NCBI GenBank assembly: GCA_964522395.1
Contig: CAZFVN010000004.1
Span: 12,430 to 76,429, forward strand
DNA length: 64,000 nt
Source: an uncultured Myxococcales bacterium
GTDB lineage: Bacteria > Myxococcota_A > UBA9042 > CAIXZC01
Direction of reading: 5' to 3'
The position numbers and the translations under genes were made by a program. The notes beneath the pieces are model-generated. The model had not been told where the DNA came from, did not search any database, and worked only from the letters and a program-made list of their open reading frames with translations. Below, piece after piece: positions 3,001-52,834 of this stretch. Each line of letters starts with the position of its first letter. Position 1 is the first letter of the stretch.

Positions 3001-5559
3001 GGCAAACAGTGTGGGGCCGATGGCTGTGGCGGTTCTTGCGGTCAATGCCCCGCTGGTTTCAAGTGTGACGCTGACTTCTCCTGCGTACCCATTTGCGTGC
3101 CCAACTGTGACGGCAAAGCCTGTGGTCCCGATGGCTGCAACGGACTCTGCGGACTCTGTGGACCCGACGAGGCCTGTCTCTCTGGCTCCTGCCAGATAGC
3201 GTGGGACTGCGAGACTCTGCTCAACTGCCTCTGGGATTGTCCCGAGAATGACGAAGTCTGTACCGATGGCTGCTGGCAAAACGCCAGCACCGAGGCACAA
3301 GAGCAGTACATCATGATCTGGGAGTGCATTCTTGAAGTCTGCGGACCCGAACCAGCGGAACCCTGCCCAGGTGAGGCGATTCTCTACGGCGACTGCAAAG
3401 ATGAGTTCAATTCTTGCCTGGACTGTACACCACAATGTACCGGCAAACAGTGCGGTTCCGACGGCTGCGACGGCGATTGTGGCGAATGTCCGCCAGGTTA
3501 CACCTGCGATGCCTACGGTTATTGTGACTGCCTCCCGAGCTGCGAAGGACAGGAATGCGGCTCCGATGGCTGTGGCGGCGAGTGCGGTGCTTGCCCCGAC
3601 GGATTCGTTTGCAACCTCTTTGGATGCTGTGTCTGCCTGCCACAGTGTACAGACAGTGAATGCGGTGGTGACGGCTGTGGTGGAAGCTGCGGAAAATGCC
3701 CCGCCGGCTTCGACTGCAAGTCTGGGAAATGCGTTGAGGGCTGCAAGCCTCAGTGCGTCACTGACAACGGTACACCGAAGGAGTGCGGGCCAGATGGCTG
3801 CGGAAAGACCTGCGGCTTCTGTCCCCCCGGACTCTCCTGTACTCCACAGGGACAATGCACCCAAATCGGACCTGTGTGCGGTGACGAGGAGTGCGAACTC
3901 AACAGCGGCGAGAACTGCCTCGAATGTCCCGAGGACTGCGGCAAATGCACCGGCGATTGCTGTGAGGCTCACAATGGCGTCGGTTGCGAAGACCTGGGCG
4001 TCACGAAGTGTGTCTGCGAGCTGGATCCATATTGCTGCAACACGCAGTGGGACGGTATTTGCGCCAATGAGGCCATTGACGATTGCGATGCGAACTGCGG
4101 ATGCGAACCTCAGTGCCTGGGCAAAGAGTGCGGTCCGGACGGCTGCGGCGGTACCTGCGGCACCTGTCCTGCGGGAGCCATCTGCAATGACGAAGACCTA
4201 TGCGAAGTCGTTTGTGAGCCCCAATGCGTAACTGCCAACGGCACTCCCAAGGAATGCGGTTCCGATGGCTGCGGGGGCACTTGTGGCACCTGCGGAGACG
4301 GTGAGCAATGCAACGCTCAGGGCCTTTGCGTCTGCGTTCCTAACTGCTGGAACAAGGAGTGCGGACCGGACGGTTGTGGCGGTAGTTGCGGGGAATGCGG
4401 GCAATTCCAGACCTGCACCGGGTCGGGCAAGTGCGCCATTGTCACGCCGCTGTGCGGCGATGGCAACTGTATGGCTCTGCTACAGGAGAATTGCGATTCC
4501 TGCCCGCAGGATTGTGGCGAGTGTTGTGGCAATGGAAACTGCGAACCCGCTTATCTCGAAAACTGCAATAGCTGCACCCAGGATTGTGGCACTTGTTGTG
4601 GTAACGACTTCTGTGAGGAGCAGTTCGGCGAAGGTTGCGATAGCTGTCCCCAGGACTGCGGACCTTGCCCAGCCGAGTGCGGCGATGGATTATGCAACGA
4701 GAACTTAGGGGAGACCTGTACCAACTGCCCCGACGATTGCGGGATTTGCCCCTCCTCTTGTGGCGACGGAGAGTGCGACGCCGATGATGAGGACTGCACA
4801 ACATGCTCCGATGATTGCGGCAACTGTCAAGGTGATTGCTGCGAGGCCAACGGCTCTGTCGGGTGCCAGGAACCGGCAATTCAGGAGTGCGTATGCGCAT
4901 TTGACGCATACTGCTGCAACGTCCAATGGGACGGTATTTGCGCCAATGAAGCGGTTGACGATTGCGGCGCAGATTGCGGCGTTGAGCCAGGCTGTGGCGA
5001 CGACATTTGTGACGCTGACCTCGGCGAAAACTGCTTTGACTGTCCCCAGGATTGCGGCCAATGCACGGGCGAATGTTGTGCCGGCAACACCACGCCCGGC
5101 TGCGAAGACCCCGATATTACACAGTGCGTCTGTGCGAAGTACCCCACTTGCTGCCAGGGAGCCTGGTCGGACAAATGTGCGGTGCTCGTCGAAGATATCG
5201 GCTGCGGAAACTGTAGCTGCATACCGAACTGCCTCAACAAGCAGTGTGGCGACGATGGGTGCGGCGGGTCGTGTGGCACCTGCCCGGACAATATGACATG
5301 TAACGCTCAGGGGTTCTGTCAGCCGATTCAAGCTGGTGATAGCTGCCCTGAGATATTTGCCTGCGCCACCGCCTGCGGCGGCGACCTTGCTTGCATGATG
5401 AACTGCAGTTCAAGCGGAACCCCGGAAGCGCAGGGGCTCTTCAGCGACCTGATGCAGTGCATCCTGCAATCCTGTATCGGCGACCTCTCCACACAGTGCA
5501 TGATTCAAGCGATCATGTTCTCTTGCAATACCGAATATAACGCTTGCATGGCTAACTAG
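1..5559 (+). CDS. Giant cysteine-rich repeat protein, probably secreted or surface-located (5'-partial, frame open from base 1)
   Basis: Frame 1 is open from position 1 to TAG at 5557-5559. It has about 24 CGxDGCGGxCGxC modules, several CGDGxC...CPxDC modules, five CVCxxDxxCCxxxWDxIC-type modules and four helical Cys modules. No CxxCH motifs seen. Confidence 0.85.
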   Translation: MASCVEDVCNNFEPGTECYKEAITGPCAKPYSQCTDCIPYCTGKECGADGCGGWCGFCIEGYDCDDGKCACIPNCDNKECGSDGCGNLCGACPPNFACTPWGKCDCTPDCVNKACGDDGCGGSCGFCPPDLEYCTENGNCIPFNCEPGEMVCDGNTPMICADNGEWMPLGSCPVGSFCQAGSCLPWICEPGTTKCEGNGVSVCADNGAGWLPPEFCPAGTKCQAGQCIPTSGCGDIPNVGCCDGTIFMLCSDEGAIAIQECGADGCGWIPNWGYGCAGIGADPSGQFPLACPGSCQPDCIDDLGQFLECGPDGCGDVCGNCAADSVCNNGQCEPFCLPQCQGQECGNDLCGGVCGLCAPNETCQDGSCLVPQACKSMIDCATGCFPLGDQCFNLCTAGADQSSAEYTEFKEVWYCVTDACPPGAPNSCYKSALLGECYQLYLSCISCTPACDGKKCGPDGCGGACGDCGDAAECVDGECEAVCVPECNGVECGPNGCEGQCGICKPSYVCNDGLCEYICQPQCVGKQCGPDSCGNQCGFCLDGYQCTDFGICIPDSICGDGICEADQGESCANCPGDCGECSSGCESSPFPACGGCKCEGCVCAQDPFCCEVEWDSICVELCYDCGGCCQANCAGKECGPDGCGAQCGTCPADYQCKSGKCEVVCTPDCDGKECGSDDCGGNCGVCEPNQTCQNSVCFSGKPCGELIQCSMECIADSGAECLFECLDEGTPEAQDEFFDLVQCILWQCGLNLDAACMLGAMNGACQEEFQTCQDCVPDCTNKQCGPNGCNGNCGLCNDGYFCDNYKCKPICEPDCTGVECGSNGCGGSCGTCADDEECLTGECIPICVPTCVGKQCGDDGCGGLCGTCPPAFACENNLCIPVGPICGDGECNFWEGESCDNCPIDCGKCGDGCSPTDYPGCKGCKCEECVCEMDSFCCEVQWDDICVGECQDCGGCGGCEPDCQKKECGGDGCGGSCGFCGPNMTCKGGKCIDQCQPSCLGKQCGADGCGGSCGQCPAGFKCDADFSCVPICVPNCDGKACGPDGCNGLCGLCGPDEACLSGSCQIAWDCETLLNCLWDCPENDEVCTDGCWQNASTEAQEQYIMIWECILEVCGPEPAEPCPGEAILYGDCKDEFNSCLDCTPQCTGKQCGSDGCDGDCGECPPGYTCDAYGYCDCLPSCEGQECGSDGCGGECGACPDGFVCNLFGCCVCLPQCTDSECGGDGCGGSCGKCPAGFDCKSGKCVEGCKPQCVTDNGTPKECGPDGCGKTCGFCPPGLSCTPQGQCTQIGPVCGDEECELNSGENCLECPEDCGKCTGDCCEAHNGVGCEDLGVTKCVCELDPYCCNTQWDGICANEAIDDCDANCGCEPQCLGKECGPDGCGGTCGTCPAGAICNDEDLCEVVCEPQCVTANGTPKECGSDGCGGTCGTCGDGEQCNAQGLCVCVPNCWNKECGPDGCGGSCGECGQFQTCTGSGKCAIVTPLCGDGNCMALLQENCDSCPQDCGECCGNGNCEPAYLENCNSCTQDCGTCCGNDFCEEQFGEGCDSCPQDCGPCPAECGDGLCNENLGETCTNCPDDCGICPSSCGDGECDADDEDCTTCSDDCGNCQGDCCEANGSVGCQEPAIQECVCAFDAYCCNVQWDGICANEAVDDCGADCGVEPGCGDDICDADLGENCFDCPQDCGQCTGECCAGNTTPGCEDPDITQCVCAKYPTCCQGAWSDKCAVLVEDIGCGNCSCIPNCLNKQCGDDGCGGSCGTCPDNMTCNAQGFCQPIQAGDSCPEIFACATACGGDLACMMNCSSSGTPEAQGLFSDLMQCILQSCIGDLSTQCMIQAIMFSCNTEYNACMAN

Positions 5560-5598
5560 GCAGTGCGGCCGTTGCAGAGTGCGGCTGCCCTCTACACT

Positions 5599-7095
5599 TT
5601 AGAAACGGGTGGATAGCTCCAGGCCGCCGCCAGCCATGAAACCTTCGGTGTGCACGAAGCCACCAGCAACCGACTCGCCATCATCATTGGCACGACCGAT
5701 GGACTGATTGCGGGGAGCCAGGAAGAGCCCCTGGAAGTGGGCATTAATGGAAAACTCCCCGAGCCCTTCGCTGGCCTTCCACAAACGGTATCCGAGCCCC
5801 GCTGCCACTGTATGCCAATCGTTGTCCATCAACACATTGAGATGACCCTGGTCACTCTCTAGAGGGGAGGGCCGGTAGCCATATCCGAGACGAACATCAA
5901 GACCCAGAGCGAAACTGTATTCGATGCCTAGACGTGGTTGCCACGTGTTGCGCAAGCGCACTGGTGGACTCCCCTCTGCGGCCACTCTAAAGTCCCCACC
6001 GAGGTCATCCAACCTGATAGTGTCATCTCCACCGAGAGCCTCCTCAGAAACAGCCATAGTCAAGATCTGTAGGTTGCTTCCGAAATCCTGCCAGAGGCCA
6101 AATTCCACCTCCGCACTAACGGTAAGCTTGTCTCGCAGCAACCAGGCGAGGCCACCAACGATACGATGGGGACGGTAAGCAAAGGTCCCGGCCATTTCGT
6201 ATGGAACTTCCATCCTCAAAGGTTCCCCCAGATCCAGCTCCATGGTCGCGGTAGCTCCCAGGGAGATGGTGGTCTTCTCCTCTCCATGATAGACCACCGA
6301 GAGGCGACCCCAAGAGGCCGGTTGAATCAACAAACCAAAGGTTGGGGCTGCCGAGAGACCAAGGGACTGCTCTGTACTCGCGGAACTTGGGGAGGGCGGA
6401 TTCACCTCTGGATGGTCAGGGTCATAGGAGGCCACCGGGTTCAGCGTCACGACCATGCCCTCCACTCGCGAATGGACCGAAACCCCGGCCCCAAGCCAGA
6501 CGCGCCCGGGCCAGATCTCTGCTCCTAGACCGAGATTCATGCGAAGCTGGTTGAAAGGAGTGTTCCAGGAGGGGAAGAAGGGCTGGTCGAGAGTCTGTGC
6601 CGTGAAGGAGGCCAGACTGCGTCCTTCGTTGGGGACCATGGTACTCCCCCCAACAACCAGGGCGAAGGGGAGGGCAGAGATCAGCTTGTGGAGAGGAATA
6701 GCGAAGCTGATGCCCAATCCTGAAAAGCGATCGAGGTCGGCGGCCCTGTCGAATAACCCTTTGATGTGAGCTCGGGTGGCCGCCCCGTCCAGCCTGCCAT
6801 TGAGATCGGACTGCTGATAGGCTCCGACCTGCCCGAGACTCCCGAAGTTAGTGACATCCGCCGAGATGGACGGGAGCATAGTGGTATACCAGAGGGAGAA
6901 TCCACCGCTGGAAAGGGCACCAAGCGCGGCCGGGTTGTACCAAGACGCATGGCCATCGTCGCAAACAGGCGTCACAGCTCCGGCCAACGCGGCGTTACGG
7001 CTTCCCAGGCCAAACAAGTCTGCGGCACGCGAGGGCGCAGCTATAAGTAGAATTGTAATTAGGAAAAGGCCCGGCAAGACCCGCCAGTCCCTCAT
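5599..7095 (-). CDS. Outer-membrane channel, FadL/OmpP1/TodX family
   Basis: Signal peptide, then GSRNAALAGAVT...ASWYNPAALG (FadL N-terminal NPA signature), RLGYGYRPSP near the end, and a C-terminal Phe. Confidence 0.8.
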   Translation of the reverse strand: MRDWRVLPGLFLITILLIAAPSRAADLFGLGSRNAALAGAVTPVCDDGHASWYNPAALGALSSGGFSLWYTTMLPSISADVTNFGSLGQVGAYQQSDLNGRLDGAATRAHIKGLFDRAADLDRFSGLGISFAIPLHKLISALPFALVVGGSTMVPNEGRSLASFTAQTLDQPFFPSWNTPFNQLRMNLGLGAEIWPGRVWLGAGVSVHSRVEGMVVTLNPVASYDPDHPEVNPPSPSSASTEQSLGLSAAPTFGLLIQPASWGRLSVVYHGEEKTTISLGATATMELDLGEPLRMEVPYEMAGTFAYRPHRIVGGLAWLLRDKLTVSAEVEFGLWQDFGSNLQILTMAVSEEALGGDDTIRLDDLGGDFRVAAEGSPPVRLRNTWQPRLGIEYSFALGLDVRLGYGYRPSPLESDQGHLNVLMDNDWHTVAAGLGYRLWKASEGLGEFSINAHFQGLFLAPRNQSIGRANDDGESVAGGFVHTEGFMAGGGLELSTRF

Positions 7096-38597: not shown

Positions 38598-41500
38598 CTA
38601 CTCCCCGCCACCATACAACTCAACACCGATCGCCTGCACGCTGGTGGGTAGGAAGTCACAAGTTGAGGTGGCGAGGCACGGATCGTCGGAGAAGTGCTTT
38701 CCCTGGGATGCAGCGAAGTGGCCAATTTGGTTTTCGACGAAGGAGTTGATATCAAATTGGCGGCTCGGGTTGGAGGGCTCCACACCGTGAGCGCCCAAGG
38801 GGGCTATGTAGGGCATGCGAAAGGCTGAGAAGCCACCCGAGGCTTTCATCTCTCCAGTCGCGTCAGCATCGATATGAGTTGCACCTTTGTTGTCCCAGCG
38901 CAAAGTTGCTCGCACCGGCTTCCCCAGGTTTGGCTCGCCATATTCGTCAGTGCCTGCATCAAGATCATCGGGATCAGCATGGACCGGGATGGGGTGCTCC
39001 GGATCGGCTGCGAAGAGCGCCGTGAACTCGTTTAGCCAGCGTCCGTCTTTCACTTGGACGCCGCTGTTTTCGGCCCAATCCGTGGTGGTCAAGGTTGCCG
39101 AGAGATGACGCCAGGACCATTCGGTACCTTCGGCTACGTACCCGTCAAGAAGTACGTCATTCTTCGTGTTTCGGGTAGTGCCCGAAGATGGCAGGTAGTC
39201 AAGAATACCTGCTGCCCTGGCCAAGGCCAGACTTGTGGCAATGGGAGTGTTGGGGTCACCGACGGTATGGTAGATGATAACGTTTGCCTGCTTCGCCGCG
39301 CCCTGATCATATGAGAAATCCAGCCGCTCTTCCGGCCCATAGTGACGGGCGTAGCTAATAGGGTCACCCCGGGCAAGAATCATTGAGGCAAAACCCATCA
39401 ATTTGCGTAGACCTGGAGTATTTCGCGCTCGTCCCAGGCCCGTATTGAGCGCCACCAGGGGAGCTCCCTCAGGATAGATCGCCCCCTGGTACTCCACCGC
39501 CACCTCAAAGGTGTCGAAACGAGCCTTCTCGTCCCCGTCCCAACCGTCAAGCACCACAACCTCCAACGCATCACCAAAGAGGAGCGCTCGCCCCAAATCG
39601 TGCTCCGCGCAGCTTGCCGGGCCCATCGGCTTGGAATCTTCCGGGTCTACTTCCACCGTCCAACTCCCCGGGGCGCAGGAGACGGGTACTGGCTGGGTAT
39701 CCCCATCCTGAATGCCCAGCAGGGGCCGTTTCTCCACCGCAGTAAGTCCGTCTGCAGGAATGGAAACCCTGAATCCCCGGCCGTCCAGATGACGAAACGC
39801 GACCACCTCCTCGCCGTTCACTTTATTACGGACGATGACTCGGTCTCCCGGCTCGATCTGGTCGGTAAGCGCGAAGGGGTAGTAGTGAGCTCGAGGGTTT
39901 TGCCAGGGGCGGTCTTCGCGGTGCTGGTCGTTGATCATGATCGCCAATTCCATCTCCAACGAATGGTCGTCGGACAGGTCCTCAACCTCGGTCTCCGGGT
40001 CCCAGCCAACTCCTTTCGTTGGCGTAAAAGAGGTCGGCGTGAAGATCACGAATGGCCCCATCATGGGCAGCCAGACCGCCTCCGGGACACCCGGATTGGT
40101 GGACCGAACACCCACCTGGATCAGTCCGCCGGCCCCCGAAACAGGAGTTGCAGTTGTCGTCGTCGCTTCAGCCCCGGCCAGTAACTCGCTGACAATGGCC
40201 CCCATGGATTGGCCCCACTGGGGGTAGTCGATATTGTCGGGGCCTCCAAAATCGACGACGCCATCGCCATTGAAGTCACCCATCAAGTCATCGGCCTTGC
40301 CATTTAGATTGGTGTCGGTTTCCCAGTTGATTTCCCCGAGGGAGCGTAACACTCGCACAAACTGCATGATGTCGATGGCTGCCTGCCGCACACAATCGCG
40401 AGTATGGAAGATATCGTAGGACCAGAAGTCTCCACCATTGTCAAAGGAGGTCAATCGGCCATCGTTGTCCAGGTCCCGAATGCGGCCAAAGGCAAATCCA
40501 TTGTAGAAGGTCGACAGTCCCAGTGGCTCAAGGAGCGTGGGCACCAATTCGTCATAGTTGATATCCTCATCTGAGGGGAGCGCCAGTCCGTGTCCAACCG
40601 CATCGATGCCGCACAGCGCATAGCCAAACTGGGTGAACCGTCCGGCGAACCCTAGGATTTCAAATGGAGCTCCAGAGTAGCCGTGCCCGTAGTGCATTAC
40701 GGGAAAGGGTGGCTTATGTTCGGCCGTGGCTTTCGGAATTGCACAGAGGAAGGAGACTTTGTTAGGGCCATGAACCGTCCCGTCACCCGCCAGGTCGATT
40801 GAGAAGCTCTCATTATCGTCCGCCGGATAGAGGGGCGTGGCAATGCCATCCTGATCGGCCAGAAAATAGGGTGTTGTATATGACCCGAGCACAAAATAGT
40901 CCACGTACTTCACGTCGTACTGAAGTGCCTCGACTACTTCTGGAGCATACCCCAACAACAACTCAGCCATCCCGAACAGCATGTCGAGGTCAGCGGCATA
41001 GAGCACGTAGGCATCATCCTGTAGACTTCCGTCTTCGGCAGCAGCATTCACCTGTTTAGGCTCCATGTCCGGGGCGTACTCGTCGCGCAATGACGCCAGG
41101 TGTCCATGACCGTACAACCCTGCCCGAATAGCCTCCAATTCCGCAGTCACCGATTGCGTAGTGAAGCTCCACGCAAAGGCTACATCAACCAGGTCAAAAC
41201 CGTATTCGGTTCGGGCCAGGATCGTTGCCAATGGTGCCAGATCGTCATTTTGACTCAAATGGTTGACGTTGGGAAAGGGAGAACGGACTGAAGAGCCCTT
41301 TTCTCCTACCATATTGCTCGTTAACACGACCGCATATGTCGTCTGCTCCCGCAAGGGCACTACTGGCCAGAGGACGAGGGTGTTGGTCTCCACTTCATAG
41401 AATGTGATGAGGTCATCTATGGGCCGGGACGCGCTCTTTAGCAACCCCGCCACATCAGCAGTGGCCAACGGAAGAAGGGGCTCTCCGCTAAATGTGTTTG

Positions 41501-42113
41501 GCCGGTCCAGGATTCCGTCGAAGTCGATATCCTCGTAGGGGTCCAGTTTGCCGTTTCCGTTGAGGTCTTCGTCATGGGTTTCAAAGAGAAGGTTGGGAGA
41601 ATCAGCGTGTTCATCCATGTCCCAGTACTGATGCTCCCATTCCAGGCCGAGGGGATAGTTGCCCTGGCCGCAATCGAGTGGTATTGCCCGGCCGAAATCT
41701 GGCGAGGCCGGGTCAACATCAAGGAGGAGGATCGCATCATCCGTGAAGTCATGGTTGGCTGCTTGTCGGTCTCGCAAATCTTCAAGATCCAACGGGCTGT
41801 CGAAGGAAACTGTTATCGGTTGGAAAGTCCCAAAGCCATCCAATTGGTTGATCTTATGCCGCAACTTCCGCTCCGCCCTCGTACTCGCCTCTTCGCTGAC
41901 GTTGATACGACGGCCCGTGGGACTATCGGGGTCGAATCTGGTCGCCACGTTATTGGGCAGAGGGATCTCAGGTAACGGTTTGGCCGCCAGGTCGAAGACA
42001 ACCATGGGACCAGTCCCGGTACCGGCAGTGCGCCCAATACCAGTGCCCTCCGGGCCCTCGCAAGCGGCCAGAAGCAAGAGGAGACATAATGGGAGATAGG
42101 TCTTCTTCTTCAT
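38598..42113 (-). CDS. Large lipoprotein alpha/beta hydrolase (lipase/esterase-like) with Ig-like N-terminal region
   Basis: Lipobox LLAAC, EIPLPNN, NQLDGFG, YGHGY, IDAVGHG, nucleophile elbow GQSMG, and several DxDxDG Ca-binding loops. Confidence 0.75.
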   Translation of the reverse strand: MKKKTYLPLCLLLLLAACEGPEGTGIGRTAGTGTGPMVVFDLAAKPLPEIPLPNNVATRFDPDSPTGRRINVSEEASTRAERKLRHKINQLDGFGTFQPITVSFDSPLDLEDLRDRQAANHDFTDDAILLLDVDPASPDFGRAIPLDCGQGNYPLGLEWEHQYWDMDEHADSPNLLFETHDEDLNGNGKLDPYEDIDFDGILDRPNTFSGEPLLPLATADVAGLLKSASRPIDDLITFYEVETNTLVLWPVVPLREQTTYAVVLTSNMVGEKGSSVRSPFPNVNHLSQNDDLAPLATILARTEYGFDLVDVAFAWSFTTQSVTAELEAIRAGLYGHGHLASLRDEYAPDMEPKQVNAAAEDGSLQDDAYVLYAADLDMLFGMAELLLGYAPEVVEALQYDVKYVDYFVLGSYTTPYFLADQDGIATPLYPADDNESFSIDLAGDGTVHGPNKVSFLCAIPKATAEHKPPFPVMHYGHGYSGAPFEILGFAGRFTQFGYALCGIDAVGHGLALPSDEDINYDELVPTLLEPLGLSTFYNGFAFGRIRDLDNDGRLTSFDNGGDFWSYDIFHTRDCVRQAAIDIMQFVRVLRSLGEINWETDTNLNGKADDLMGDFNGDGVVDFGGPDNIDYPQWGQSMGAIVSELLAGAEATTTTATPVSGAGGLIQVGVRSTNPGVPEAVWLPMMGPFVIFTPTSFTPTKGVGWDPETEVEDLSDDHSLEMELAIMINDQHREDRPWQNPRAHYYPFALTDQIEPGDRVIVRNKVNGEEVVAFRHLDGRGFRVSIPADGLTAVEKRPLLGIQDGDTQPVPVSCAPGSWTVEVDPEDSKPMGPASCAEHDLGRALLFGDALEVVVLDGWDGDEKARFDTFEVAVEYQGAIYPEGAPLVALNTGLGRARNTPGLRKLMGFASMILARGDPISYARHYGPEERLDFSYDQGAAKQANVIIYHTVGDPNTPIATSLALARAAGILDYLPSSGTTRNTKNDVLLDGYVAEGTEWSWRHLSATLTTTDWAENSGVQVKDGRWLNEFTALFAADPEHPIPVHADPDDLDAGTDEYGEPNLGKPVRATLRWDNKGATHIDADATGEMKASGGFSAFRMPYIAPLGAHGVEPSNPSRQFDINSFVENQIGHFAASQGKHFSDDPCLATSTCDFLPTSVQAIGVELYGGGE

Positions 42114-42122
42114 CTTATCCCC

Positions 42123-43730
42123 CTATTGCCAGTGAAGGGCTGCGGCAGCCAGGATCTTCCAGACCGCATCGGGCAGGTTACCCTCGGGGTCTGCCAGAGC
42201 CTTGCCGGGCAGGAAGTAGGATTGGTCTAGATGGATGGTCAGCCCAAGATGCTCGGGCCAGGCCAGAACGGTCGCCCGAACTCCGGCAAGAAGTTCAGTT
42301 CCCAGGTAGTTACTGTCAACGCTGCGGCCCAGATGGTTAGCCGCACTGCCGCCATTACGGAAGGTGTAGTAGGAGTGCGCAAACTCGGCCGGTGAGGTCA
42401 TCAGGAGACCACCCAGCAATACCTTGATATCCTCGACGTGATGGGTGGCCGGACTCCAGGTCCAGCGAAGCTGCGGGAAGTAATAGAGAACATTGGTCGC
42501 CCGCTCCTGGCTGGGAATGAGATCCAACCCTTTTGCGGGCACCGCGACATTCGCGGGATCGCTGGAGAGCTCTGCAGCTCGTGCCGATATACGAGGCAGC
42601 ATCTCGTCGAAGAAGATGAGTCCAACGTTGTAATCCGGATCGAAGAAGAAGGCATGCGAGGTGTCATCGTGTGCGTTTTTGTCGCCCGAGGCGTAGCCAA
42701 CCTCCACCTCCGCCTCCAAGCCCAGCGAGTGAATTGCGAAATTGAGCCTTCCAACTGCACCAAACGAGGAGAGGTCAAGACCCTCTTCCGTGCCGATCTG
42801 CTGAAAGCGATCGGTGTGCCCCTGGAGCCAGACAGTTTCGTAATCCAACGAGAGTGCCAGGTCTGGGACCTGCTGTCCCGCTAATGCCCCTGCGCCCTCT
42901 CTGGTCGTCAGCGCATACTCGTTCTTCCCGTTGAGATTCAGGACCAATGCCTCAAGGGTATCGCCGTCATTGTCTTTCTGCGTCCGGAAAGTGACGATTG
43001 CACCGTTGGTGAAACGGGGCTGGCTCCAGAAGAGACCCCCATTCACCTGGTAGGCCCTGTCGCCATCTTGGAAGATAGCGTTCTCGTCCCGCCAGACCAT
43101 GTCACCCGATGCGACGATGGTAAGATAATCGCCCCACGCATTGGCCCCGGTCAACGGCCGAAAGGGCTTGAGTGCCAGCAAAGCCCGGTCCACTACATCA
43201 CCATATCGCCTGACACCGAAACGATCGTGGTCTTCGACTCCGGTGTTGGCGAGAATGCCAAGCCCATAGGAACTCGTCATCTGCCCCAGACGGAAGAGAC
43301 CGATGGAGGTGAGCACCTGAGCGTAGGCTTCTCGCAGTAAGAAGCCATGAAATCCCTCCCCGCGGTTTACTGACTTACGGTCTAGTCGGCGCCCGGCGGG
43401 ATATAGGTTTTCACGGTCACCCAGGATCTGGCCTTCAATCAGGTCCATCTCCACTCTCGCACCAAACCGCCCCCAGGCAAAGGCAGGGGAGAGTCGCACC
43501 CGCTGTTCGGCCCACTGGCCCACGGGATTGGTGAGTCCTGCTTCGTCCAGGACAAAGTCTGTGGTGCTGTGGTAAGCGAAGCGGTACTCCCCGGCCCAGA
43601 GATTCCACTGTACGCCTTGCCGAGGAGGCAACAACCTTACTTCCGGTTGGTAGCCCCACTCAGCGGCTAGCGGTCTGCCGCCAGTCACCAGCACAAAAAG
43701 TGTGAGAAGGATTCTCCAAATTGGACTCAT
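42123..43730 (-). CDS. Outer-membrane beta-barrel (alginate-export/porin-like)
   Basis: Signal peptide, LREAYAQV, FRLGQM, EVGYASGD...FFFDPDY, YLGTEL and SYFLPG motifs. Confidence 0.7.
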   Translation of the reverse strand: MSPIWRILLTLFVLVTGGRPLAAEWGYQPEVRLLPPRQGVQWNLWAGEYRFAYHSTTDFVLDEAGLTNPVGQWAEQRVRLSPAFAWGRFGARVEMDLIEGQILGDRENLYPAGRRLDRKSVNRGEGFHGFLLREAYAQVLTSIGLFRLGQMTSSYGLGILANTGVEDHDRFGVRRYGDVVDRALLALKPFRPLTGANAWGDYLTIVASGDMVWRDENAIFQDGDRAYQVNGGLFWSQPRFTNGAIVTFRTQKDNDGDTLEALVLNLNGKNEYALTTREGAGALAGQQVPDLALSLDYETVWLQGHTDRFQQIGTEEGLDLSSFGAVGRLNFAIHSLGLEAEVEVGYASGDKNAHDDTSHAFFFDPDYNVGLIFFDEMLPRISARAAELSSDPANVAVPAKGLDLIPSQERATNVLYYFPQLRWTWSPATHHVEDIKVLLGGLLMTSPAEFAHSYYTFRNGGSAANHLGRSVDSNYLGTELLAGVRATVLAWPEHLGLTIHLDQSYFLPGKALADPEGNLPDAVWKILAAAALHWQ

Positions 43731-46589: not shown

Positions 46590-46607
46590 TCGTGATTAAA
46601 TTCACAT
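46590..46607. promoter_or_regulatory. Rex- or CRP/FNR-family-like operator
   Basis: TCGTGA-TTAAAT-TCACAT palindrome in an AT-rich intergenic stretch about 130 bp upstream of the cytochrome. Confidence 0.5.
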
Positions 46608-46734
46608 TGGCTATTGCCAACCCCATCCCACCGTGCTAGAAAAGCGTTCAAAGAGATGCCCCGGACAATATAAGTACCTGAAAACTGTAAATTCGCACCC
46701 ACGTGGTGCCAATAGTAGAAGAAGGAGAAAGAAC

Positions 46735-49392
46735 ATGGCGAAAATGCGAACACTGATGTTGGTTGTGCTCGCCGCAGTTGCGCTGAGCCTCAATGCTTGT
46801 GAAGGGCCTGCGGGCCCCGACGGCGCACCGGGCGCAGCAGGCGACAAAGGCGCAGCAGGCGACAAGGGCGATCCAGGTGAGCCGGGCACCCCCGGCGATG
46901 ACGGCGATGACGGCGAAAATGGCGAGAACGGCGAGAACGGCGAGAACGGCGAGAACGGCGAAAACGGCGAAAACGGCGAAAACGGCGAAAACGGCGAAAA
47001 CGGCATCTCCACCGGTACTTTTGAAGGTACCCTTACCAGCGCGCTCAGCGGCATGGCTCTTGAAGGCGTCGAAATTGCCATCATGCCGGCCATTGAAGGT
47101 TTGGAAATCATGACCGACGAAGAGGGCATGTACAGCGCCGACCTTCCCATCGGTTATTTCATGGTCACCTTCACGCTGGAAGGCTACACCGCTGGCGAAG
47201 GCACCATCTCCATCGTTGCTGGCGAAACCCTGACCTACGACCTGACTCTCGAAGCAGAAGAGCCGGTTGTGGTTGGCTTCGACGGCGAAACCATGGTTGC
47301 CCCCGGGGCGGCCACGGAACTCATGGCTGTGGTTGATACCGAAGCGGGCATCGACGTAACCGGTTACGAATGGCACCAGGTTGAAGGTGTTGACGCAGAT
47401 CTGGCTGGCGCGGACGGCGACACGCTTACCGTGACCCTGGCCGACTTCGAAGTATTCGAAGCTGCCCTCATCAGCCATCTCGATGTTCTCCAGCGACACA
47501 AGGTCCTCGGCATCAACCCCCATTCCCTTGAGCTAACCGCCATTATGGTCTTCGAAGTGACCGTGACCACTAGCGCTGGCGAGTACATGGAAGAAGTGGA
47601 AGTCCATGCGGAACTTCCTTACCAGATTTCTGCCGGCATCAACAACGTAGCCCTGGGCTCCAACGTTACACTCTCTGCTCCCGAAGCTGACACCTACGCA
47701 TGGGAGCTGGACGCTCCTGCCGGCTCCGCTGCCGAGCTCACCGATGCCACCAGCCGTATCCCGGCGTTCACCGCCGACACCGCAGGCGAATACGTCGTCT
47801 CCGAAGGCGACGCTGAATTCACCGTCTTCGCTGGCAAGTTTGCCGGTGCGATCTCTGGAATCGGTGAAGATGGTCTGCCACTATCCGGCAACTGCACTAC
47901 CTGCCACTCCCCAAATAGCGACATTGACCAATTCACACCGTGGAAGCAGTCGGGCCACGCCCACATCCTCACCAACAATATCAACACCAGCACCCACTAC
48001 AGCACTGGCTGCTTCTCCTGCCACACCGTTGGCTTCAACGGCATTGAAGGGGACGGTGGTATCGACGACGCGGCTGACTGGGACGACTTCATCGCCGCTG
48101 ACCTCTTCCACGACACCAAGATGGAAAACTGGGGGATTATGGTCGATGATTACCCGACCGTTGCCAAGCTTGCCAACATTCAGTGCGAGAACTGCCACGG
48201 CCCCAACGGCGACGATGTGGCACATCACCAGACTGCGGATCGCGGTCGGACCAGCATCTCTTCCGACGTCTGCGCCACCTGCCACGGTGAGCCCCTGCGT
48301 CACGCACGCTTCCAGCAGTGGGAACTCTCTGGCCACTCCAACTACGCCCTGGCCGAGAATTACGCTGGCAACGGCAACTGCGGTCGCTGCCATAGCGGTA
48401 ACGGCTTCATCGCCTGGACCAAGTCCGGGGACTGGGAATCATCCGTTGACGCATCCGAATTCAACGCGGACAACGCCCATCCGCAGACCTGTGCAGCGTG
48501 CCACCTTACCCACGACGTTGGCACCACGACCAAGGACGCTAACGATGCTAATCTCCGCGTCTTCGGCGACAGCCCGATGCTGCAAGCCGGCTTCCAGGCC
48601 AAGGGACTGGGCAACGGTGCTCTTTGTATAACCTGCCACAACGCCCGCCGCGGCCTCGTGGGCGACGACATCTCCACTCCGGCTGGCGGCCGTGCACCCC
48701 ACGGCTCTGCCCAGGGTGATGTCTTCATGGGTATGAACGCTTACTTCTTCAAGGGCGTCCGTTCCCCCCACTCCTACATCAAGGACACCTGCACCAACTG
48801 CCACATGGAACTGCAGGATCCGCCGGAAGAGCTCAGCTACAAGCTCGGCGGCACGAACCACTCCTTCACCGCTTCCACGGCCATCTGCGCCAACTGCCAC
48901 GGCATCTTCGACGGCGGAACGCTCCACGATGCCACCGAAGGCGTGGCTCACGACCTGGCCGACCGCCTCATGGAATACGCCCACATCAAGTTCGAAGCTG
49001 CGGGCACCGTATGGGTTGAAGGTGAAGAGGGCGTCGTCGAACTCGAATACGACGAGATTCACCCCACCACAGGGCACGGCCGCCAGGCTATCCACACCAT
49101 CAAAGGCGAATTGGAAGATCACTTCCAGCTCCGAAATGCCTGGATGGATGCTGGTAACGACGGCGACGGCACCTGGACCCTGGAAGATGCTGATGGCGTC
49201 TACACCGAAGAAGATGAAGACTTCCCAATCTTCGACGATGACGATGAAGACGACATGATGTTCTACAAGGCTGGTTGGAACTACCACCTGATTCACTACG
49301 ACAACAGCCACGGCGCCCACAACCCGACTTTCACCTTCGAGATTCTCGAAGCTGCAATCGCGGTAATGGATGATCTCCTGGCTGTTCCCTAA
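46735..49392 (+). CDS. Lipoprotein nonaheme cytochrome c with collagen-like stalk, carboxypeptidase-regulatory-like and PKD-like domains
   Basis: RBS AAGGAG, lipobox LNAC and about 23 Gly-X-Y triplets. Nine CxxCH motifs: CTTCH, CFSCH, CENCH, CATCH, CGRCH, CAACH, CITCH, CTNCH, CANCH. C-terminal GWNY...DNSHGAHNP. Confidence 0.9.
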   Translation: MAKMRTLMLVVLAAVALSLNACEGPAGPDGAPGAAGDKGAAGDKGDPGEPGTPGDDGDDGENGENGENGENGENGENGENGENGENGENGISTGTFEGTLTSALSGMALEGVEIAIMPAIEGLEIMTDEEGMYSADLPIGYFMVTFTLEGYTAGEGTISIVAGETLTYDLTLEAEEPVVVGFDGETMVAPGAATELMAVVDTEAGIDVTGYEWHQVEGVDADLAGADGDTLTVTLADFEVFEAALISHLDVLQRHKVLGINPHSLELTAIMVFEVTVTTSAGEYMEEVEVHAELPYQISAGINNVALGSNVTLSAPEADTYAWELDAPAGSAAELTDATSRIPAFTADTAGEYVVSEGDAEFTVFAGKFAGAISGIGEDGLPLSGNCTTCHSPNSDIDQFTPWKQSGHAHILTNNINTSTHYSTGCFSCHTVGFNGIEGDGGIDDAADWDDFIAADLFHDTKMENWGIMVDDYPTVAKLANIQCENCHGPNGDDVAHHQTADRGRTSISSDVCATCHGEPLRHARFQQWELSGHSNYALAENYAGNGNCGRCHSGNGFIAWTKSGDWESSVDASEFNADNAHPQTCAACHLTHDVGTTTKDANDANLRVFGDSPMLQAGFQAKGLGNGALCITCHNARRGLVGDDISTPAGGRAPHGSAQGDVFMGMNAYFFKGVRSPHSYIKDTCTNCHMELQDPPEELSYKLGGTNHSFTASTAICANCHGIFDGGTLHDATEGVAHDLADRLMEYAHIKFEAAGTVWVEGEEGVVELEYDEIHPTTGHGRQAIHTIKGELEDHFQLRNAWMDAGNDGDGTWTLEDADGVYTEEDEDFPIFDDDDEDDMMFYKAGWNYHLIHYDNSHGAHNPTFTFEILEAAIAVMDDLLAVP
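46912..47001 (+). repeat. 9-bp coding tandem repeat (GGCGARAAY)x10 encoding (Gly-Glu-Asn)10
   Basis: ggcgaaaat once, ggcgagaac four times, ggcgaaaac five times. Confidence 0.95.
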
Positions 49393-49405: not shown

Positions 49406-49440
49406 TGCGGGTGCGGCACACGCCGCACCCGCATTCTCTC
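49406..49440 (+). terminator. Probable terminator hairpin after the cytochrome gene
   Basis: Perfect 12-bp stem TGCGGGTGCGGC/GCCGCACCCGCA with a 4-nt loop, followed by a pyrimidine tract (weak U-run). Confidence 0.6.
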
Positions 49441-49722: not shown

Positions 49723-50595
49723 CTAAAGCAGATTGGGCATCACGGGAAAGCCGACGTTGGTAATTACATTGTTCGGCTCGGAATCGAGACGCCAGGTGTA
49801 GACAATCTTGGAGATCACGTTGCCGCTTGGCAGCGTCACCGTCAACTCCACGGGCCCTGGAACGGTATTCGAGACCAGGAAGAGGCCCCGGTCCCTGGTC
49901 GAAGTCAGGGCGCTATCAGGCAGGTGCGATTCCGACAGGTAGGTTACCTTGCCGGAGCTTGCGGTGACGACAGCATCCTCGAGGGTATCGTAGGATATGA
50001 TTTCGTAGAGAGTCCCCTGGATGTAACCCTTGTCGTTCTTCTGCTTGGTCAATTCTATGGGCAAACTGATGATGGTCGGGTCAAAAAGGCGCAGATTGCT
50101 GTGGATGTAGTCGCCGCGAAACTCCTTGTCAAACTCCCTGAAGACCGGGTAGTCATCGAACTCCCAATCGGCCTCAGCAATTGTCTCTGGACGGTGTGGA
50201 TACTCGAAGTAGCCGACGAAACCGTGCTCCCCCGCCGGAGTATGGAAAGCGAAACTCCCGGAGGGTTGAACCGTCACTCGATCAACTTCAATGCCGCACC
50301 AATCGAAGACTAGCAGATCAATGTCACCGATGTAGTTGCCAGGCCAGAGGTTATCCCATGACATCTCTAGTACCTGCCCGGCAACAGAGAGATCCTTGAG
50401 GGGCTCTTCCGGCGCCAGGAAGCAGAGATGCTCACCGACGGACACCTCACCTCTGGTGGCCACCTCAGTTGCTGCGTCCAGAGGGAAGAACGAGCCAAAA
50501 TCAGTGGCCTCCGGTGCCGGAGCACTACAAGCCAACAGAAGTCCCGTGAGAAGCAGCGTTGAAAAGCTACGGTGGTTAGTCAGTGTCGCAAGCAT
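49723..50595 (-). CDS. Hypothetical lipoprotein with carboxypeptidase-regulatory-like beta-sandwich domains
   Basis: Lipobox LLLAC, KGYIQGTL...LEDAVV...TRDRGLFLVSNTVPGPVELTV, and overlap with the upstream gene. Confidence 0.6.
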   Translation of the reverse strand: MLATLTNHRSFSTLLLTGLLLACSAPAPEATDFGSFFPLDAATEVATRGEVSVGEHLCFLAPEEPLKDLSVAGQVLEMSWDNLWPGNYIGDIDLLVFDWCGIEVDRVTVQPSGSFAFHTPAGEHGFVGYFEYPHRPETIAEADWEFDDYPVFREFDKEFRGDYIHSNLRLFDPTIISLPIELTKQKNDKGYIQGTLYEIISYDTLEDAVVTASSGKVTYLSESHLPDSALTSTRDRGLFLVSNTVPGPVELTVTLPSGNVISKIVYTWRLDSEPNNVITNVGFPVMPNLL

Positions 50596-52834
50596 CGCCG
50601 ATCCCATCGTTGTCACCATCTTCCTGCTTGGGATTGTGTACCCCTGGACAGTTGTCTTCGACGTAGTTCAACTCAGGCATCGGGTCATAGATAAGGTCGA
50701 TAACCATATCCCTGTCGGGGTCAAGGGCACCGGACGTAAATTCGGAAGCGAACGGATGGTTGAAGGGATGCGAGCCGATCCCCTCAAAGCCTGCGTTCAT
50801 AAAGGGATAGAGTTTGCCAGTTCCAGGCCAATTGCCCGGCGACAGCGTTCCATCCTGCCACTCAATCTCGTAGCGCCCCACTACCTGATCGTAGATTGCC
50901 TGCCAGTCATGGTAGACACCGCCGGAATCCTCGTAGCGGAAGGTGTGGACAACCCCACGCTTATCAAGCTGGTGATCAAGGTCGAAGAAGGCCCCCGGGG
51001 GTCCTTCAAAATCTCTGATTCCAGTGGTGAACATTATGTTGCCATCAAAGGGGAAACGGTCGAAATCAGTGAGCCATGGGTTGGCAAAGCCCTCCAGGCC
51101 GGGGTCGAGCTGGCAGGTGATATCCAATCCGCAAAGCATGGCCACAACAATTGCGTTGGCCACAGCCGGGGGGCTGAACCAGAAGCAGGTCTTGCCACCG
51201 GGCAGGATTTCCCGCTGGTCGAGGGTAACATCTCGATTCATGCCGGTCTCTGGATCGATGTGGGAGTTATCCCGAAAGCCATCCCCGACAACTTCGTAGG
51301 GATAGGCTGAGTTATTGGCCTTGTTGCAGATGTGGTTATGGGTAATGGAACCATCGTTGTACCAATAGGCCCAGGGGTTGAAGAACGACACAGTAGTAGG
51401 CACGATGCCGTAAACCGACCCCCAGGTATCCTCAAAGATAAATGCGTTCATCAGGGCCCCGAAGCCACCACCAGAAAGGCCCGTTATCCCGTGGGCTCGC
51501 CGGAAGATGTTCCAGGTGCGCCCTTCTTCCTCCAGCTTGTCCAAATCGGCCTCGTCCTCATAGGGGATTGGCATGCCCTTGTCATCGAGTCGCTGTCCCA
51601 GGTCATTCATCCCCTGGAAGCGGAAGACCTTACCGAGGAAGTGATTCATAGTGTGAGCCATGAAGTAGGAGTAACAGGTAAACTGCGTGTACTCTGGGAT
51701 CGCCGCACCGATGCCCATGAATTGCGTGTAGCAAGTATTACCTGCCCCTGGCCAGGGCCAGCCGCCGCCGCAATAAGGTTGCGGCACCGTGCCATCCATA
51801 AGCACTAGGATCATTGGCTCCAGCACGCCCTGGGAGGAGAAACGGGGCAGCGTCTTATAGCCAAAAGCATCGGCCATTGACATCCCTTGCCCATTATAGC
51901 CGTGCAAACCGACGAGGACCGGATAGCGCTGGTTCTTGTTGCCCCATGGAATAGACGTGTTGTTGAGCAGCGGATCGTCTGAGTTGTACTCCGGCGGCAC
52001 GAAAACGTGAACTTTGACCGGATAGGGGAAGCACCGTTCACAATCCTCGGCAGGAATCTCGAATTCGACGTCCTTGTAACCAGGGCTCCACATGGGGAGC
52101 GTGTGGAACATGCGCTCAAAATACATATCTTTGCCGCGATGCAAGGTGAAGAGATAGGGCTGGGTCGGGGAGAGCCCCGGGTAGTCCGGCCCCAGTTCAT
52201 CCTTTACCGGAATGATCTGGAGTGACGGCGAGCGTCGCAATCCCTGCTTGATTGGACGCCAATTAACAATCATGGAGACTTCAGCGCCGATCTCATCCAG
52301 TTCATAGTCATATTCGAAGAGATGCATCTCAAAATACTTGTTGAACTCACCTGTCTCCACCGGATTTTCCGGCATGTACATGTCTTCGGGGAACTCTATA
52401 ATGATGTTCTTGCGGACCGAGACCATGTCCATGTTCTCAACGTTAGTCCACATTACCTCGAGTTCTTCCGGCAGGTACTCGGGAAGTTGCGGGCCGAGGT
52501 CTGGCTCCACATCCACGATGTCCGGCGCCTCAGCATCCACAGTATCTTCAGGCTCCACACTGTCAGGGGGCGGCTCTTTTGAGTCTGGCGGTGGTTCCAC
52601 ACCGTCGGGAGGCGGCTCAATGGAATCGGGAGGCGGTTCCACTGCACCATCGGGCTTAGTCACCCCGTCGGCTGGCACAAATGTGTCAGGAACGACTACA
52701 TCAGCGGTAACCGTATCGGGCGTCACAGTCGCCTCTTCGGGTTGACCGGTATCCTTATTAATGGCATTGCCACCACCACAGCTCACTGCCAAAGTGGCCA
52801 CAGCCAACATCACTATCCAGGGGAGCGTTCTCAT
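50576..52834 (-). CDS. Lipoprotein esterase (alpha/beta hydrolase, PF00756-like) with Pro-rich linker and C-terminal TSP3 repeat
   Basis: Lipobox LAVSC, VEPPPD repeats, VFVPPEY...RYPVLVGLHG, GLSGGGFGA, YHDW and DNCPGVHNPKQEDGDNDGIGDACD. Confidence 0.8.
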   Translation of the reverse strand: MRTLPWIVMLAVATLAVSCGGGNAINKDTGQPEEATVTPDTVTADVVVPDTFVPADGVTKPDGAVEPPPDSIEPPPDGVEPPPDSKEPPPDSVEPEDTVDAEAPDIVDVEPDLGPQLPEYLPEELEVMWTNVENMDMVSVRKNIIIEFPEDMYMPENPVETGEFNKYFEMHLFEYDYELDEIGAEVSMIVNWRPIKQGLRRSPSLQIIPVKDELGPDYPGLSPTQPYLFTLHRGKDMYFERMFHTLPMWSPGYKDVEFEIPAEDCERCFPYPVKVHVFVPPEYNSDDPLLNNTSIPWGNKNQRYPVLVGLHGYNGQGMSMADAFGYKTLPRFSSQGVLEPMILVLMDGTVPQPYCGGGWPWPGAGNTCYTQFMGIGAAIPEYTQFTCYSYFMAHTMNHFLGKVFRFQGMNDLGQRLDDKGMPIPYEDEADLDKLEEEGRTWNIFRRAHGITGLSGGGFGALMNAFIFEDTWGSVYGIVPTTVSFFNPWAYWYNDGSITHNHICNKANNSAYPYEVVGDGFRDNSHIDPETGMNRDVTLDQREILPGGKTCFWFSPPAVANAIVVAMLCGLDITCQLDPGLEGFANPWLTDFDRFPFDGNIMFTTGIRDFEGPPGAFFDLDHQLDKRGVVHTFRYEDSGGVYHDWQAIYDQVVGRYEIEWQDGTLSPGNWPGTGKLYPFMNAGFEGIGSHPFNHPFASEFTSGALDPDRDMVIDLIYDPMPELNYVEDNCPGVHNPKQEDGDNDGIGDACDTD

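Follow-up and report, generated by a model that had tools for sequence, protein, structure and literature searches.

The NrfA-related group of multiheme cytochromes includes, according to the part of a published comparison used here (PMC9250108), the proteins c554, NrfA, ONR, HAO, OTR, MccA, OcwA and OmhA, of which OcwA, OmhA, MccA and c554 are placed in one clade, and the C-terminal helices are described therein as oligomerisation helices. For OcwA, the nine-heme outer cell-wall cytochrome of Thermincola potens, the corresponding part of its own description (PMC6703420) reports two open high-spin hemes, a mixture of monomers and dimers, and weak activity with nitrite and hydroxylamine, the nitrite turnover being very slow (kcat 1 per min). 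The present work concerns a gene from an uncultured Myxococcales bacterium whose product joins a head of this kind to a lipid anchor, a collagen-like stalk and a rod of beta-sandwich domains. The gene is a single open reading frame (ORF), coding for a product of 885 amino acids (aa), at positions 46735-49392 (+) of a 64,000-nucleotide stretch of DNA (contig CAZFVN010000004.1 of assembly GCA_964522395.1, positions 12,430 to 76,429), which is referred to below as the window. We interpret its product as a multiheme oxidoreductase that is lipid-anchored and belongs to a large, so far uncharacterised family, and the role that we put first, giving this interpretation about an even chance of being correct, is that of a terminal electron exchanger reaching outward from its membrane.

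The nine-heme domain (residues 373-885; 47851..49389, +) contains nine CxxCH motifs, with their first Cys at residues 387, 426, 484, 513, 549, 586, 631, 686 and 718. The whole protein has 38 His, and a count over its 885 aa found zero CxxCK motifs; all of this agrees with the initial annotation, which had been made from the sequence of the window without database searches. Because no CxxCK is present, the head is not NrfA or ONR proper. When the single sequence was searched against the Protein Data Bank (PDB), only collagens and a marginal match to TvNiR were obtained and OcwA was missed, and a family profile was needed in place of this search. The profile, built from 45 sequences and searched against solved structures, matched OcwA (6I5B) with an E value of 1.9e-6 over 8 collinear stretches, including the C-terminal DGSxGVHN, TvNiR with an E value of 2.7e-6 and NrfA with values of 0.0015-0.04. 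The C-terminal motif of the protein, viz. GWNYHLIHYDNSHGAHNP (49273..49326, +), belongs to the last helices of a three-helix bundle, and in the family profile its GWNY..DNSHGAHNP portion aligns with DGSNGVHN of OcwA. The residues W848, N849, D856, S858, G860, H862, N863 and P864 of this region are invariant in an alignment of 8 collagen-bearing members (this protein and 7 homologs), and the helices, as noticed at the outset for this region, are seen in the model (359-387, 469-487 and 495-514 in model numbering), the last two of them confidently, with a C-terminal predicted local distance difference test score (pLDDT) of 84-96.

The AlphaFold model of the head as a whole is weak (pLDDT 63.4, predicted template modelling score 0.59), and the fold comparisons given here are to be read with this in mind. 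Foldseek with this model placed OcwA at the top (E 0.05, probability 0.96, template modelling score 0.27) and OmhA at rank 3 (E 0.095). Exhaustive structure comparison again gave OcwA (Z 10.1, 193 of 516 residues aligned, 25% identity, root-mean-square deviation 5.1), followed by MccA (Z 9.8), NrfA (9.3), ONR (9.1) and OmhA (8.8), with unrelated helical bundles starting from 6.2, and the fold matches cover model residues 261-516. A Pfam match to MtrC-MtrF_II-IV (PF22113; 45.2 bits, residues 384-492 against profile positions 81-167) covers generic heme motifs. No MtrC-type chain is present among the fold matches listed, which should not be interpreted as excluding such a relationship. The collinear heme motifs and the three long C-terminal helices are traits of the NrfA-related group, and based on the profile, Foldseek and structure comparison results the head is a remote member of this group with OcwA as its nearest relative, in accordance with the initial assignment of the C-terminus to the NrfA/octaheme-related fold.

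The head shares with OcwA the nine CxxCH motifs, the lack of CxxCK, the three-helix bundle with D-x-S-x-G-x-H-N, and a CxxCH motif binding the heme at the NrfA catalytic position. However, OcwA is a protein of ~500 aa from a Gram-positive host and, in the cited part of its description, it is without a lipid anchor, a collagen stalk or an Ig-like rod. Similarly, OmhA of Carboxydothermus ferrireducens (PDB 6QVM) is a multiheme head mounted on the cell envelope, but it is an S-layer-associated undecaheme (eleven-heme) protein, whereas the present protein has nine hemes, a lipid anchor and collagen. In the OcwA/OmhA clade there are two five-coordinate hemes with non-bonding distal His pairs, and the comparison with this nine-heme head is made through a cofactor-free model only. 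With TvNiR (2OT4), NrfA (6V0A/1QDB) and MccA (4RKM) the likeness (Z 8.2-9.8) consists of the order of hemes 5-9, a CHM motif and the C-terminal helices, but NrfA and ONR have CxxCK, MccA has a copper site and a CX15CH motif, and NrfA, ONR and MccA all work as soluble enzymes of the periplasm, for which dedicated redox partners exist. The heme 5 motif, C549-G-R-C-H553 (48379..48393, +), occupies the position of the catalytic heme that octaheme nitrite reductase binds by CxxCK, as the catalytic C-L-N-C-K of TvNiR aligns with it in the profile (TvNiR chain residues 175-234, 29.2 bits). Among 69 family members, the His residues outside the motifs that are conserved in at least 86% are 408, 523, 534, 593, 656, 679, 709 and 862, and the presence of 8 such residues for 9 hemes hints, at the level of sequence, that one or more sites may be open or have a ligand other than His.

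At its other end the protein starts with a predicted lipoprotein signal peptide (residues 1-21; 46735..46800, +, inclusive of the lipobox Cys22 in LSLNA-C), viz. MAKMRTLMLVVLAAVALSLNA followed by Cys22, in which an n-region MAKMR is followed by a hydrophobic core and LNA. Cys22 is invariant in the 8-member alignment. The Asn at -2 of this Cys is atypical, as the usual lipobox rule disfavours Asn at that position. The stalk that follows (residues 24-92; 46804..47010, +) consists of 23 uninterrupted Gly-X-Y triplets with 19 D/E, 2 K and 6 P, and the final ten triplets are GEN; it scores 35.4 bits against the Pfam Collagen family (PF01391, cut-off 27.2), and the order of lipobox Cys and triplets is as first annotated. 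The best NCBIfam matches of the stalk are to the collagen-like adhesins SclA, SclB and Lcl, all of them far under the cut-offs. The net charge of the stalk is about -17 per chain, and its proline content is 9% vs a family median of 17%. The emphasis that had been placed on a highly acidic character is not upheld: the whole protein has 151 D+E vs 31 K+R, 184 of the 1653 ORFs of at least 400 aa in the genome are at least as acidic, and acidity was therefore rejected as a special feature of a protein that is ordinary for its genome in this regard. The GDD/GEN triplets are encoded by a 9-bp tandem repeat (46893..47004, +; 12.4 copies, 94% matches), which is likely, from its sequence, to be a length-variable part of the stalk. 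In all four public runs holding the gene, the short-read contigs break in or at this repeat (~46900-46990), and only 39-base unitigs are found inside it.

The closest described counterparts of the stalk are the collagen-like regions of Scl1/Scl2 (Streptococcus), BclA (Bacillus) and Lcl (Legionella), which likewise have uninterrupted Gly-X-Y triplets without hydroxyproline chemistry next to a globular domain; BclA also has length-variable tandem triplets, as in this stalk. However, these are LPXTG- or exosporium-anchored adhesins or spore-coat fibres without redox cofactors, whereas the present protein is anchored by an N-terminal lipid and bears a nine-heme cytochrome as its cargo. The Gly-X-Y run, which the initial annotation supposed to trimerise, is modelled as a three-chain helix with values well above the controls. 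Three copies of residues 23-185 gave values of 0.64, 0.62 and 0.39 in three runs (median 0.62), vs 0.01, 0.00 and 0.00 for the controls, with a partner pLDDT of at least 84 and a contact agreement of at least 89%, and the modelled interface comprises all of residues 24-92 with staggered contacts. In the calibration of the tool, 20 of 30 solved pairs and 1 of 23 single chains attained the mark used for such models; the present job differs from that calibration in its three copies and own 8-row alignment. Collagen triple helices rise 0.286 nm per residue, and a triple helix of this stalk would accordingly be ~20 nm long.

Between the stalk and the head, residues 93-380 are modelled with AlphaFold2 (39 homologs, mean pLDDT 94.6) as three beta-sandwich domains. 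The first (residues 93-177; 47011..47265, +) is carboxypeptidase-regulatory-like in the model and has a weak PEGA match, and the second and third (residues 178-372; 47266..47850, +) are Ig/PKD-like by the model and Foldseek. The Foldseek matches of the rod (E 5e-9 to 1e-6) are to the BcpA pilin, IgLON, DUF3823, the SbsB S-layer protein and invasin. The sandwich and PKD-like domains named in the initial annotation are thus seen as three modelled sandwiches, but in Pfam they appear in this protein only as sub-threshold PEGA and K319L-like PKD matches (the latter with E 2.2e-4), and at the same positions the homologs show CarboxypepD_reg and K319L-like PKD. Other lipid-anchored cytochromes differ from the present protein in these parts. 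MtrC/OmcA of Shewanella are also lipid-anchored surface multiheme (decaheme) cytochromes outside the cytoplasmic membrane, but they are without a stalk and have ten hemes, a staggered-cross fold and two split-barrel domains. The triheme lipoprotein PgcA of Geobacter sulfurreducens has a lipid anchor and repetitive (Pro-Thr) linkers, but in the part of its description used here (PMC5732950) these lie between the hemes and are not Gly-X-Y.

The architecture had initially been considered as a candidate new one; as stated, this view is not supported, since the architecture is not an isolated one. A word-indexed search gave more than 1000 matches; the 120 matches listed all have E values below 1e-121 and show 41-49% identity over the head, except for one fragment with 86%, and the listed matches are mostly unnamed proteins from metagenome-assembled genomes of Planctomycetota, Myxococcota and others, with some family members automatically named 'nitrite reductase cytochrome c552 subunit'. 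An exhaustive profile search counted 1183 cluster representatives with an E value of at most 1e-30, a number that rose to 4761 with a limit of 1e-10 and to 11465 with one of 1e-3. Species-representative genomes yielded 388 stretches with a relative, from which 77 loci were kept, belonging to Phycisphaerae, Thermoanaerobaculia, Sulfomarinibacteraceae, Polyangiaceae, Anaeromyxobacter (including the isolate A. terrae SG22), Geobacteraceae, Nitrospirota, Calditrichota, Ignavibacteriota, Bacteroidota, Chloroflexota and others. At least 6 triplets precede the first heme in 15 of 76 of these loci (16 of 77 when the window is included), and 15 of the 16 triplet-bearing loci have a detectable lipobox, the run starting from -4 to +14 relative to the Cys as judged by a crude detector. 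Runs of 6-30 triplets (median ~10) are present in 61 of 209 long-N-terminus members, defined by 8 or more hemes and a part of over 250 residues ahead of the first one, and nearly all of these runs start from -1 to +8 of the lipobox Cys. In a search of 40 genomes from the family and class to which the window belongs, only 3 gave a whole-protein relative with this query (57%, 34% and 35% identity), and the distribution is patchy. In the open full-text literature, with subscription-only papers and supplements outside the scope of the search, no paper was found that joins collagen-like repeats with multiheme cytochromes.

The history of the stalk was traced on a FastTree phylogeny of 69 heads, after 8 of the 77 rows had been removed for having fewer than 8 hemes or a truncated 3' end. 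The 14 collagen rows all belong to a clade of 38 rows with long N-termini, and the other 31 rows form a clade with short N-termini. The stalk trait requires at least 5 changes on this tree, 3 of them forced by supported branches, vs a mean of 13 for shuffled labels, and 0 of 500 shuffles were as low as observed. By this pattern, the stalk is old among the members with long N-termini, where several losses or regains have taken place. Further, Gly stays in register while the X and Y residues vary widely among the members, which argues for selection on the repeat itself, and the stalk can on this sequence evidence be regarded as a selected feature and not as chance low complexity.

The same stalk is also found on cytochrome heads of other kinds. 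The genome contains 16 ORFs with at least 7 triplets, and in only 2 of them does the run directly follow a lipobox Cys, both being multiheme proteins. The second of these (C68:16255-18222, = L104:4256-6223, -; AAGC followed by DGSDG) has 28 triplets and eight CxxCH motifs, and it is HAO-like (PDB 6H5L, E 7.6e-21; Pfam PF13447). HAO enzymes and MccA are homotrimers, and a trimerising stalk would therefore fit at least an HAO-like head. When related genomes were searched with the stalk only, and the best 20 matches were fetched and scored for CxxCH, seven scorable ORFs with lipobox-adjacent Gly-X-Y runs had 2, 3, 0, 8, 8, 5 and 8 motifs, one further ORF of this type was cut at a contig end and left unscored, and two N-terminally cut ORFs had 8 and 10. 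Nine ORFs with internal Gly-X-Y runs and a His-rich ORF with GSH repeats had zero CxxCH, and one locus was without a run. The heads on these stalks are, by Pfam, HAO-like (PF13447), NrfA-like (PF02335), MtrC/OmcA-like (PF22113, E 3.8e-56) and of a CarboxypepD_reg-plus-heme type. One example is an MtrC/OmcA-type decaheme protein with OmcA-like_N (L094:3-2297, +, G018:C94), which has at least 18 triplets at a contig edge. The sole non-cytochrome exception in the sample (L087:351-2681, -, G014:C57) is a lipoprotein with 37 triplets, DUF4397 and a proprotein-convertase P-domain, and no CxxCH. Judged by these sequences, the stalk is a portable module, which in the sampled lineage occurs almost only with lipid-anchored multiheme cytochromes. 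What is new here is a stalk among the longest in the range of the family that carries a tandem expansion, a genome in which stalks bear heads of two unrelated kinds, the almost exclusive association of lipobox-adjacent collagen with cytochromes in the sampled lineage, the correspondence in the alignment between heme 5 and the ONR catalytic heme, and a three-copy model above its controls.

With respect to its surroundings, the gene looks monocistronic with its own control elements, as had been annotated. A ribosome-binding site AAGGAG (46722..46727, +) was read 7 nt 5' of the ATG, and an intrinsic-terminator-like hairpin (49406..49433, +), with a 12-bp stem of which 10 are G-C pairs, followed by TTCTCTCTCC, starts 14 nt past the stop codon. 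A GTGA-N6-TCAC palindrome, cGTGATTAAATTCACAt (46592..46605; the letters at these positions are GTGATTAAATTCAC, in the context cGTGA-N6-TCACAt), lies ~135 nt upstream of the ATG and is a candidate operator of the CRP/FNR family. The upstream neighbour is a FAD-linked oxidase whose gene ends 198 bp before the start of the nine-heme gene, and the downstream neighbours are in convergent orientation. By Pfam, the flanking genes include metK, the FAD oxidase, UbiB, rpoA, a PilZ protein and several unknowns, and in the interval from 36552 to 56927 no cytochrome, porin or quinol dehydrogenase was found among them, which agrees with the earlier remark that no porin-cytochrome or quinol dehydrogenase gene is adjacent. 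Two other groups of genes in the window may be mentioned here. Directly downstream of the cytochrome gene are two convergent ORFs for very acidic putative lipoproteins of 298 and 752 aa (49723-50619, -, and 50576-52834, -), and upstream of metK there are two large ORFs of 1171 and 535 aa (38598-42113, -, and 42123-43730, -); at E<=0.001, Pfam gave no match for the former and no family for the latter. The closest ortholog (57% identical, same taxonomic family) has near it, on its contig L007, a polyferredoxin-like membrane protein (1123-2976, +; Fer4_5, Fer4) and a 5-heme cytochrome (4405-5706, -). It shares no neighbours with the window, where metK and the FAD oxidase are found, and the palindrome is missing upstream of it. 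Due to this absence of shared neighbours, reasoning from a conserved operon fails, and clustering of the neighbours at the 77 loci yielded only generic two-component genes, other cytochromes and, in a minority, NapC/NirT or b561 fusions.

Elsewhere in the genome (5.35 Mb in 219 contigs, 58% G+C, 88% complete) there are 14 ORFs with at least 6 CxxCH, the maximum being 19 in one ORF. A ResB-type system for heme attachment and maturation and a LolA homolog are present, and CcmE gave no match, from which its absence cannot be concluded at a completeness of 88%. A cluster of four multiheme genes (C79:7810-17332, = L105:1314-10761) codes for a protein that combines 10 hemes with Big_2 domains, an 11-heme protein fused to cytochrome b561, a NapC/NirT-type 5-heme protein and a 19-heme protein fused to b561, so that quinol dehydrogenase-type cytochromes do exist in this genome. 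Upstream of both operons of this cluster there is a perfect TTGTGA-N6-TCACAA, and TGTGA-N6-TCACA sites number only 7 in the 5.35 Mb. The GTGA-N6-TCAC core occurs 2 times in the window vs 1.07 expected, which is not significant alone, and there are 77 core sites in the genome; within ~400 bp upstream of the 14 largest multiheme ORFs, a core palindrome is present in 3 vs ~0.12 expected. These sequence patterns provide a lead that the gene may be under CRP/FNR-type control shared with partner cytochromes encoded elsewhere. As a separate observation, contig C1 carries two giant open frames (C1:23149-47142, -, 7998 aa, and C1:61483-87630, -, 8716 aa), in which a few CxxCK strings occur.

Taken in mechanistic terms, the outward-reaching electron exchanger would work as follows. 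Three chains would wind into a collagen-type triple helix, each trimeric particle would carry three heads with 27 hemes, and the helix together with the beta-sandwich rod would keep the heads at a good distance from the anchor-bearing membrane. As the stalk and the rod are without cofactors, the heads would have to exchange electrons with other cytochromes or with diffusible carriers and not directly with the anchoring membrane. The partners could be found among the many multiheme proteins of the genome, including its quinol-side cytochromes of CbcL-like and NapC/NirT-like type, which may share CRP/FNR-type control with this gene, and the acceptors or donors would be insoluble, colloidal or cell-bound. 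One heme may be open, and by analogy with OcwA this could lead to side reactions with small nitrogen oxides.

Several points weigh against this interpretation. The hemes would be tens of nanometres from the anchor, with no obvious path for electrons if the stalk is rigid, and the membrane and the face on which the anchor sits cannot be read from the sequence. No partner gene is adjacent to the nine-heme gene, and an MtrB/PioB-type porin gave no match in the genome, to which its completeness of 88% again applies, so that this is not evidence of absence. The presence of whole-protein relatives in so few of the 40 related genomes means that the protein does not perform a core function of the lineage. 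The public runs in which the gene is present are marine metagenomes from a single study, and no RNA runs are among them. The head model is weak and its Foldseek E value only 0.05. Since all public contigs break inside the GEN repeat, its number of ten copies is not independently confirmed but rests on the assembly, in which it may be collapsed or expanded. The low proline content together with the net charge of the stalk implies that the helix may be unstable without cations. Lastly, solved structures include many collagen helices, and the three-copy pass, which departs from the calibration in both its number of copies and its alignment, may therefore show only likeness to solved collagens and not binding.

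If the protein is instead a tethered periplasmic enzyme, viz. a reductase or oxidase of nitrite, hydroxylamine, NO or a sulfur oxyanion of the NrfA/ONR/MccA kind, then soluble or NrfH-like cytochromes would feed it and the stalk would only be a tether. We rank this explanation second and consider it doubtful. The alignment of heme 5 to the catalytic heme of octaheme nitrite reductase, the 8 conserved distal His for 9 hemes, the nitrite reduction and hydroxylamine turnover reported in the cited part of the OcwA description (PMC6703420), and the automatic c552 names on some members are all in keeping with it. In addition, a NapC/NirT-type gene is present in the flank at 7 of the 77 loci, three of which have it at a distance of no more than 4 bp, and at 7 of the 77 a cytochrome-b561 fusion is found at up to 2.7 kb. 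However, CxxCK is missing from the protein, no NrfH/NapC gene is adjacent here, and the nitrite turnover of OcwA given in the same part of that source is very slow. A long stalk and three Ig-like domains resembling pilins, S-layer proteins and adhesins would also be unusual for an enzyme acting on a soluble substrate, and the same stalk is found on MtrC/OmcA-type heads, which are not small-molecule enzymes.

A further explanation, which may hold independently of the other readings, is that there is no triple helix and that the Gly-X-Y run serves as a flexible, acidic, repeat-expanded tether of a monomer or of an OcwA/NrfA-like dimer; this we regard as unlikely. It would account for the final ten triplets being a recent 9-bp tandem expansion and for the low proline, the one-sided charge and the lack of Lys-Glu/Asp pairs. 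The monomer/dimer mixture reported for OcwA in the part cited (PMC6703420) is also consistent with it, and the three-copy pass may be a recall of solved collagens. However, an unbroken Gly at every third position over 23 triplets, and over 6-30 triplets in 61 relatives with differing X and Y residues, would be needless for a disordered linker, the Pfam Collagen match is above the cut-off, and the three-copy model is far above its controls. That the protein is mainly an adhesin or a surface fibre binding minerals or polymers, with hemes serving for sensing or redox buffering and not respiration, is very improbable, because in spite of the resemblance of the rod to pilins, adhesins, S-layer proteins and surface glycan-binding proteins, and of the SclA, SclB and Lcl matches far below their cut-offs, the nine-heme head is the most conserved part among the 120 matches listed, the heme motifs and the distal His hardly vary, and many members, including the 31 of 69 tree rows with short N-termini, are without the rod.

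Returning to the outward-reaching electron exchanger, the recurrence of its stalk can be given a wider form. We tentatively propose, as a possibility that falls short of an even chance, that the collagen helix is a general portable mount, which trimerises lipid-anchored heads of the OcwA-, HAO-, NrfA- and MtrC/OmcA-like kinds, with its length (6-30 triplets, ~5-26 nm) setting the distance of the hemes and slippage of the tandem triplets, in this case (GEN)10, tuning the reach. In this diderm bacterium, the ~20 nm stalk and the three-domain rod could then let a 27-heme particle anchored in the inner membrane span the periplasm as far as the outer membrane, or else let a particle anchored in the outer leaflet stand clear of the cell surface.

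Multiheme cytochromes of the cell envelope drive respiration with iron, manganese, humic substances and electrodes as well as the exchange of electrons between cells, and their positioning in the envelope is known in only a few model organisms. The recurrence of the collagen stalk on unrelated heads in many uncultured phyla suggests a common, unstudied way of trimerising and spacing hemes, and within the nine-heme family the stalk reaches at least one cultured relative, viz. Anaeromyxobacter terrae SG22, whose homolog has a run of 7 triplets. The stalk would be a rare bacterial collagen with a defined cargo that is not an adhesin, and if the proposal of a portable mount is true, then it would represent a new structural principle for long-range electron exchange.

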